Below the pieces are notes generated by a model. It made no database searches and was not told the DNA's origin. It saw nothing but the letters and a program-made list of their open reading frames with translations. A program made the translations under genes and the position numbers. A stretch of 64,000 nucleotides of DNA from Escherichia phage VB-EcoM-WM: the sequence record PQ014731.1, one strand, 5' to 3'. Positions 46,936-47,222 of this stretch are shown in pieces. The first letter of the stretch is position 1. Each line of letters opens with the position of its first letter.

Positions 46936-47222
46936 AAATGATAGTGGCTTCGTGCAGAAATGCACGTCGAATAACTTCGTTAATTGCTGGAAAATCCTTT
47001 ATGAAAGGACAATCAGCAGCCAAGCCTGAATATTCAGGAAGGTTCAACGACTATCCCGAGAGGGAGTAGGGCGCAAGCTTATGGCGCTCGAAAAGCGAAG
47101 CACCCTGAGATGGGTGGTGATATAGTCTACTCTGCATGGTAACATGCAGCGGCACGTAAAGGTGCGGAGGGTGGTGTTGCGACCAACCTTGAATATAAGG
47201 ATTCGATAATCCTGTATGCCTG
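46936..47222 (+). mobile_element. group I intron (ORF-less) in terminase large subunit gene
   Basis: Exon 1 ends in U, intron begins AAA and ends in G; P-like AATTGCTGGAAA, R-like GTTCAACGACTA (47042-47053), S-like GATATAGTC (47119-47127); stop codon then in-frame continuation. Confidence 0.7.

Follow-up and report, generated by a model that had tools for sequence, protein, structure and literature searches.

The window analysed here is a 64,000-nt stretch of DNA from Escherichia phage VB-EcoM-WM (PQ014731.1). The region is 95–99% identical to Vequintavirus phages, which are rV5-like myoviruses of E. coli. The gene of the large terminase protein TerL occupies positions 46192–48005 of the plus strand, and is split by a 266-nt group I intron that lacks an open reading frame (ORF). 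The gene can be divided into three parts:

46192–46934, plus strand: TerL exon 1, ending with the AU of an isoleucine codon; the ORF at 46192–46941 matches Terminase_6N and is colinear with intron-free TerL
46935–47200, plus strand: ORF-less group I intron of IA type, 266 nt long, identified by the RF00028 match, the insertion relative to PV435126, and covariation
47201–48005, plus strand: TerL exon 2, in which the first A completes the AUA isoleucine codon and is followed by FDNPVCLRDNPEYL...; the stop codon is at 48003–48005

The plus-strand ORF that begins at 46192 continues to a TGA codon at 46939–46941, and its product has the C-terminal end ...SFIGATIK. The open frame of the second half of TerL resumes downstream of this stop, in agreement with the original prediction, which was made from the sequence alone and had the frame interrupted after SFIGATI. 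The N-terminal half matches the Pfam profile Terminase_6N, which represents the N-terminal ATPase domain of large terminases of the T4 type (5e-17, 62.7 bits), at profile positions 2–157 of 215 only, and the C-terminal half matches Terminase_6C (4.4e-07), the terminase nuclease domain. Upstream of TerL, the plus strand carries two overlapping genes at 45510–45908 and 45905–46192, which are annotated in relatives as i-spanin and o-spanin. The second spanin-type gene ends in ...TAATG, and overlaps the TerL start codon.

Boundaries of the insertion and the restored TerL protein

The intron-free relative PV435126 contains an uninterrupted TerL gene with a length of 1548 nt, which is colinear with positions 46192–46935 and 47202–48005 of the window, and thus delimits an insertion of 266 nt. 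The protein encoded by PV435126 reads ...SFIGATI-FDNPVCL-RDNPEYL.... Two placements of the insertion, 46935–47200 and 46936–47201, fit the DNA comparison, and both give an identical protein. The wobble pair U46934·G46944 of helix P1 coincides with the conserved U·G pair of the RF00028 model in the Rfam alignment, and no G other than G47200, which directly precedes exon 2, agrees with the junction of the intron-free gene. The wobble pair and the terminal-G rule settle the ambiguity of one base, and the intron therefore spans 46935–47200.

The flanks ...ACCAT/TAAATGA... and ...AAGG/ATTCGAT, in which the slash marks the splice site, are common to all of the intron-bearing relatives examined. Both flanks, ...GCAACCAT/T... 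and ...AAGG/ATTCGAT, are identical to those of the rV5-type TerL intron 2, and the intron sequences themselves are 95–99% identical. The frame of exon 2 is open only from position 47199, immediately after a TAA codon at 47196–47198. The ligated exons read ACC AU/A UUC, with Ile-Phe at the junction, and the predicted spliced junction is ...GGCGCAACCAT/ATTCGATAATCC....

Just upstream of the insertion site, positions 46923–46934 differ from positions 1232–1244 of the PV435126 locus by three synonymous substitutions. The intron-bearing alleles examined have the spliced sequence GGC GCA ACC ATA, as opposed to GGT GCA ACA ATT in the single intron-free allele examined, and C46932 pairs with G46946, completing a base pair of P1. 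The differences would fit either co-conversion with the intron or adaptation to its guide sequence.

The spliced TerL has a length of 515 residues, and contains the sequence ...SFIGATIFDNPVCLRDNPEYL... and a single terminal stop. By tblastn, 120 phage records encode a sequence with at least 99% identity to it. In the listed intron-free records (Phage 203, phage nom), the spliced TerL matches as one uninterrupted piece. Terminase_6N aligns to residues 25–294 of the spliced protein (profile positions 2–211 of 215, 72.6 bits), and because the alignment runs across the junction, the intron is located inside the ATPase domain. A tryptic peptide across the junction would extend from the K/R ahead of PLSFSFIGATIFDNPVCLR, and could be obtained only from spliced mRNA. 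Comparison of the spliced TerL with solved structures gave no match at E ≤ 0.01.

Fold and conservation of the intron RNA

A search of the whole window against Rfam 15, which includes the group I covariance model suggested for this locus in the original prediction, identifies RF00028 (Intron_gpI) at 46925–47149 on the plus strand, with a score of 92.7 bits, an E-value of 1.7e-22, and coverage of model positions 1–253 of 253. The gathering score of RF00028 is 50 bits, and the homologous introns of related phages score 71–106 bits. The intron-free allele of PV435126, which was used as a control, gave no RF00028 match, and no family other than RF00028 was found on the intron stretch, even at relaxed E-values. 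The three motifs that had been quoted as P-, R-, and S-like all align to conserved core segments of RF00028: AATTGCTGGAAA corresponds to J3/4-P4, GTTCAACGACTA to J6/7 and the 5' strand of P7, and GATATAGTC to the 3' strand of P7. The minimum free energy (MFE) fold contains P1, P2, P3, P4–P6, P7.1, P7.2, P8, P9, P9.1, and P9.2, and has a z-score of -4.0. The elements of the intron are as follows:

46931–46947, plus strand: P1 (46931–46936 with 46942–46947), from the Rfam alignment and MFE fold; CCAU of the exon and UA of the intron pair with the internal guide UAGUGG at 46942–46947
46939–46941, plus strand: UGA in frame with exon 1, located in the P1 loop after two intron codons; the read-through is GATIK followed by two stops
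46951–46966, plus strand: P2 with a GAAA tetraloop; six of six pairs compensatory, 100% of cells paired
46975–46981, plus strand: 5' strand of P3, pairing with 47094–47100; four of seven pairs compensatory
46985–47018, plus strand: P4–P5, with P4 formed by 46985–46990 and 47013–47018, and P5 by 46995–46999 and 47005–47009; from Rfam, MFE, and covariation
47019–47043, plus strand: P6/P6a hairpin, from covariation; 47021–47041 is the site of the HNH cassette in relatives
47049–47053, plus strand: 5' strand of P7, GACUA, pairing with 47123–47127; conserved R and S elements in the Rfam alignment
47054–47065, plus strand: P7.1 with a GAGA loop, from MFE and two compensatory pairs
47069–47089, plus strand: P7.2, from MFE and three compensatory pairs
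47094–47100, plus strand: 3' strand of P3, from Rfam and covariation
47101–47116, plus strand: P8 hairpin, from Rfam, MFE, and covariation
47123–47127, plus strand: 3' strand of P7, UAGUC, from Rfam and covariation
47132–47149, plus strand: P9 hairpin with a GUAA tetraloop, from Rfam, MFE, and covariation
47152–47165 and 47167–47190, plus strand: peripheral hairpins P9.1 and P9.2, past the end of the Rfam model, from MFE and covariation
47200, plus strand: omega-G at the 3' splice site, from the intron-free junction and the alignment with the terminal G of the nrdD intron

P7 and P3 form a pseudoknot, and P7 contains the presumed guanosine-binding G-C pair. Covariation was evaluated in a plain MAFFT alignment of ten introns, comprising those of the window, JEP1, RudolfGeigy, SPbeta bnrdE, phiNIT1, KIL4, and AD45-P3, those of rV5 and 24-2-1 after removal of their ORFs, and a partial copy from Av-05, which is represented by its 5' 216 nt only. 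For the 75 pairs of the structure, 93.3% of the cells can pair, and 33 of the 75 pairs are changed on both sides; derivation of the structure from one member gives some advantage in the fraction of paired cells and none in the number of compensatory changes. None of 500 shuffles reached these values. When the 3' partners were slid by one to three columns, 32–47% of the cells were paired, with 7–10 compensatory pairs. All five pairs of P7 are invariant in the ten sequences, and P7 is therefore neutral as evidence of covariation. The compensatory substitutions indicate continuing selection on the fold.

Together, P7.1 and P7.2 account for 38 nt that have no counterpart in the Rfam model. These two helices mark subgroup IA, which is the usual type in phages, and the intron is assigned by them to subgroup IA as a whole (IA1, IA2, or IA3). 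Phage-type introns of this subgroup are often classed as IA2. Subgroup IA2 is heterogeneous (PMC11878797).

The pairing of exon 2 with the guide sequence (P10) is weak, with three base pairs at most (A47201-U46942, U47202-A46941, and U47203·G46940). In addition, a hairpin predicted at approximately 47198–47213 extends across the 3' splice site, with which it may compete. The weak P10 and this hairpin are the only features that speak against efficient splicing.

Related introns in TerL and in other genes

TerL of the window has DNA matches in 136 phage records, most of which lack the insertion. In the phage collection, the complete ORF-less intron is present in 8 records, and the ORF-bearing form in approximately 20. 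Phages rV5, HdK5, and Avunavirus 24-2-1 have this intron at the identical site in a form that carries a 231-aa HNH ORF (phrog_59, 1.9e-51), and the HNH cassette replaces the 21-nt P6a hairpin at 47021–47041. TerL intron 2 of rV5 (NC_011041; ORF64ABC, HNH gene rv5_gp066) shares the gene, site, and flanking exon sequence with the intron of the window, and its ribozyme is approximately 96% identical outside P5/P6, whereas its P6 loop holds the 231-aa HNH ORF in place of the hairpin. Phage rV5 has a further TerL intron of approximately 320 nt at the equivalent of window positions 46613–46618 (approximate), which is absent from the window.

Two other phages contain the ORF-less form at the same site. 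The copy in JEP1 (MT740314) is 98.9% identical over all 266 nt. The JEP1 record leaves the splice unannotated, and places a spurious minus-strand 'hypothetical protein' within the intron. The copy in RudolfGeigy (MZ501102) is 95.5% identical over all 266 nt, and its coding sequence is annotated as a join of three segments. Unlike the window, RudolfGeigy has a P5 loop of the rV5 type and an upstream TerL intron. RudolfGeigy and HdK5 have their upstream introns at the same position as rV5. The upstream TerL group I introns of rV5 and RudolfGeigy score 84–85 bits and are approximately 320 nt long (917–1195 in both of the loci, L002 and L003). The upstream intron of HdK5 has a length of approximately 890 nt and encodes a 'putative recombination endonuclease' (L004, 923–1809).

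The Av-05 copy is 86% identical to the intron of the window, and its P2, P5, and P6a are different in sequence and still paired. Because these variants remain paired, the compact form appears to be under selection rather than a fresh deletion. Av-05 was rejected as a full-length divergent copy, since the sequence of the record breaks off within the intron, and begins with a fragment of a different intron in reverse orientation. This arrangement suggests a misassembly between similar introns.

Introns in TerL genes of this group have been published. The rV5 genome paper, under 'Introns in terminase', describes TerL in three segments, with one intron carrying a homing endonuclease, and cites the terminase intron of LL-H (1995) as the sole earlier case (Kropinski et al. 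2013, PMC3606486). The RefSeq record of rV5 gives TerL as a three-part join, the RudolfGeigy record does likewise for the ORF-less form, and the LL12 genome announcement also mentions a TerL intron. Because TerL introns were published for rV5 and annotated in RudolfGeigy, the feature of the window is a correct rediscovery of one that was already known.

The ORFs that overlap the intron are short, encoding 43 aa on the plus strand and 37, 59, and 115 aa on the minus strand, and none of them matches a PHROG family. As had been proposed, there is no endonuclease ORF inside the intron. The copy is therefore not autonomously mobile, and is unable to initiate homing on its own. Its persistence is presumably due to vertical inheritance, or to recombination with co-conversion in mixed infections. 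A free-standing 113-aa HNH ORF (Pfam HNH; phrog_2255, 5e-27) closely follows the tRNA cluster on the plus strand, at 44701–45042. It was considered as an endonuclease acting in trans and rejected, as it is unrelated to the HNH protein of the rV5 intron (BLASTP E 0.27).

The window contains another group I intron in nrdD, which encodes the anaerobic ribonucleotide reductase. The nrdD intron is 762 nt long, lies on the minus strand at 19115–18354 between exons 19116–20276 and 17376–18353, and contains an HNH-type ORF of 183 aa at 18504–19055. Since the ORF splits the core, the intron scores only 32.9 bits against RF00028 (18404–18638, minus strand, E 1.3e-4, relaxed threshold), and the match covers the 3' half alone. 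Its removal gives a 713-aa NrdD with the junction ...TSMG/CRSFL..., as in the intron-free phage EduardKellenberger. Between P9 and the terminal G, the nrdD and TerL introns agree at 60 of 71 positions, and both introns end in ...UUGAAYAUAAKG. The terminal Gs of the two introns align, which provides independent support for G47200 as the 3' splice site. The 5' half of the nrdD intron, which interrupts a different gene, is much less similar to the TerL intron. A rule for the 3' end, UUGAAU followed by five nucleotides and G, was dropped, since among the related introns only the TerL and nrdD introns of the window obey it. Translation of the possible SPbeta bnrdE junctions, compared with a homologue, suggests that this intron ends only 2 nt after UUGAAU.

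Introns in the ribonucleotide reductase genes of other phages, including phiNIT1, have the same architecture with P7.1, P7.2, P9.1, and P9.2. These reductase-type introns score 92–94 bits on RF00028 and are 73–74% identical over about 70–77% of the TerL intron. They occupy a different insertion site in a different host gene, have another guide sequence, and belong to another phage lineage. The phiNIT1 match is 74% identical over 77% of the TerL intron; the phiNIT1 gene has two introns (PMC11878797), and the matched one may be either. Group I introns likewise interrupt the large terminase genes of SIOphi and CB7, a parallel that does not imply kinship with the intron of the window in site or sequence. 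The SIOphi TerL gene has been shown to splice in vitro and in vivo. The CB7 TerL intron carries an HNH ORF, unlike that of the window. A match in phiTE was rejected as a CB7-type TerL intron, because it lies in a ribonucleotide reductase gene.

Several broader scenarios may be considered. In view of the 85% identity of the TerL and nrdD introns from P9 to the terminal G and the low similarity of their 5' halves, introns of one phage genome might swap ribozyme modules by recombination, the ORF-less intron might spread by means of the endonucleases of co-infecting relatives, or GTP-dependent splicing of TerL and NrdD might act as a switch that links packaging to timing or energy. We regard these scenarios as unlikely. 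Splicing as a timing or energy switch has been the subject of speculation for Bastillevirinae (PMC11878797).

Alternative readings and the proposed splicing pathway

Several records in GenBank, including those of HdK5, JEP1, and 24-2-1, annotate the two halves of TerL as separate coding sequences, as would be expected if the ribozyme had decayed, splicing did not occur, and TerL were made as two polypeptides that assemble after translation. The N-terminal polypeptide would then end at 46941, and the C-terminal one would start at the in-frame TTG at 47268, which opens a 245-aa ORF and is preceded by GAAGG at a distance of approximately 10 nt. However, the same TTG and GAAGG are present inside the uninterrupted TerL genes of intron-free relatives, and thus they are not specific start signals. 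A start at this TTG would also result in the loss of 22 conserved residues. Because the intron is located inside the ATPase domain, the split would fall within the segment of residues 25–294 that is matched by Terminase_6N, which makes a two-polypeptide terminase unlikely. The intact ribozyme core, the score of 43 bits above the Rfam gathering score, and the compensatory substitutions all oppose the interpretation of the intron as a decayed relic. We consider this explanation to be very improbable. Phage genes are also known to be interrupted by inteins, by group II introns, and by sites of translational bypass such as that of T4 gene 60. In the insert, the frame of exon 1 reaches a stop after two codons, and the frame of exon 2 contains stops up to 47198, so that an intein is excluded. 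The bypass gap of T4 gene 60 is roughly 50 nt, and the 266-nt insert of TerL is far longer. Furthermore, RF00028 is the only family that matches the insert, and the group I signature explains it. The possibility of such an element is effectively refuted, and its probability is negligible.

The original prediction of an ORF-less group I intron that splits TerL is borne out by the RF00028 match, the covariation in ten introns, the restored TerL of 515 residues, and the ATPase profile that spans the junction. Its boundaries have to be corrected. It positioned the intron at 46936–47222, with a length of 287 nt and with exon 2 starting at RDNPEYL, and relative to the interval derived from PV435126 and the two splice-site rules, this intron starts 1 nt and ends 22 nt too far downstream. 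The longer interval does keep the reading frame, and its 508-aa product still matches Terminase_6N with 68.9 bits, which is less than the score of the 515-aa product. The U at 46935 and the G at 47222, proposed as the end of the 5' exon and the terminal G, are real bases of the sequence; the nucleotides at the splice sites, however, are U46934 and G47200. The U·G wobble is formed at position 46934 and not 46935, and in the alignment with the nrdD intron, G47200 falls on the last column of the homologous 3' domain. In addition, SFIGATI was thought to join RDNPEYL directly, whereas intron-free relatives with 98% DNA identity have FDNPVCL, encoded at 47202–47222, as exon sequence between the two segments. 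A 3' end at 47222 would thus delete seven conserved residues, and there is hardly any likelihood that these boundaries are correct. We are highly confident that positions 46935–47200 constitute a 266-nt ORF-less group I intron of IA type in the ATPase domain of a Vequintavirus TerL, and that it is the endonuclease-free form of rV5 TerL intron 2.

We infer the following course of splicing for this group I intron. The TerL pre-mRNA would fold into a ribozyme composed of helices P1 to P9.2. An external guanosine bound at P7 would attack after U46934, held in P1 by its U·G pair with G46944. The freed 3' OH of U46934 would then attack after G47200, and the exons would be joined. The ligated message, with AU/A UUC at the junction, would be translated into the 515-aa TerL. 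Translation of unspliced RNA would proceed only to the UGA two codons into the intron, and yield 249 aa. The position of this UGA in the P1 loop may stop ribosomes short of the ribozyme core. The introns of phage T4 have the same arrangement.

The production of TerL needs RNA splicing because the group I intron splits the gene, and the claim made in the original prediction that TerL depends on splicing follows from this arrangement, with splicing itself deduced. The introns in the large-subunit ribonucleotide reductase gene of phiNIT1 self-splice both in vitro and in vivo (PMC11878797). In the Vequintavirinae phage CB7, splicing of an HNH-containing TerL intron in vivo was established by RT-PCR and Sanger sequencing (PMC7344957); since the phiTE match lies in a reductase gene, the CB7 result serves only as an analogy. 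The ORF-less intron is present in the plaque-forming isolates JEP1 and RudolfGeigy. The ORF-less form also shows that the phage can do without the HNH gene of the rV5 copy of the intron. The window would provide another example of a phage in which a gene for packaging relies on self-splicing of its RNA. The appropriate annotation of TerL is a single gene with the location join(46192..46934, 47201..48005), in place of two fragments. The records of HdK5, JEP1, and 24-2-1 misannotate it as separate terminase pieces or contain spurious ORFs in the intron.

A cluster of six tRNA genes is located at 43931–44654, and includes an odd tRNA-like gene on the plus strand at 44400–44498. ARAGORN leaves this gene unassigned, with a four-base anticodon call, and its Rfam score is 37.5 bits. 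It has a 26-nt insertion in the variable region, and its anticodon loop is UUUUUAA. Approximately 18–25 unannotated records among MG065639–MG065690 ('Campylobacter phage' A147, C7, C9, and others) are 95–96% identical to this E. coli Vequintavirus over 20 kb, and on the basis of this similarity their Campylobacter jejuni host label looks doubtful.
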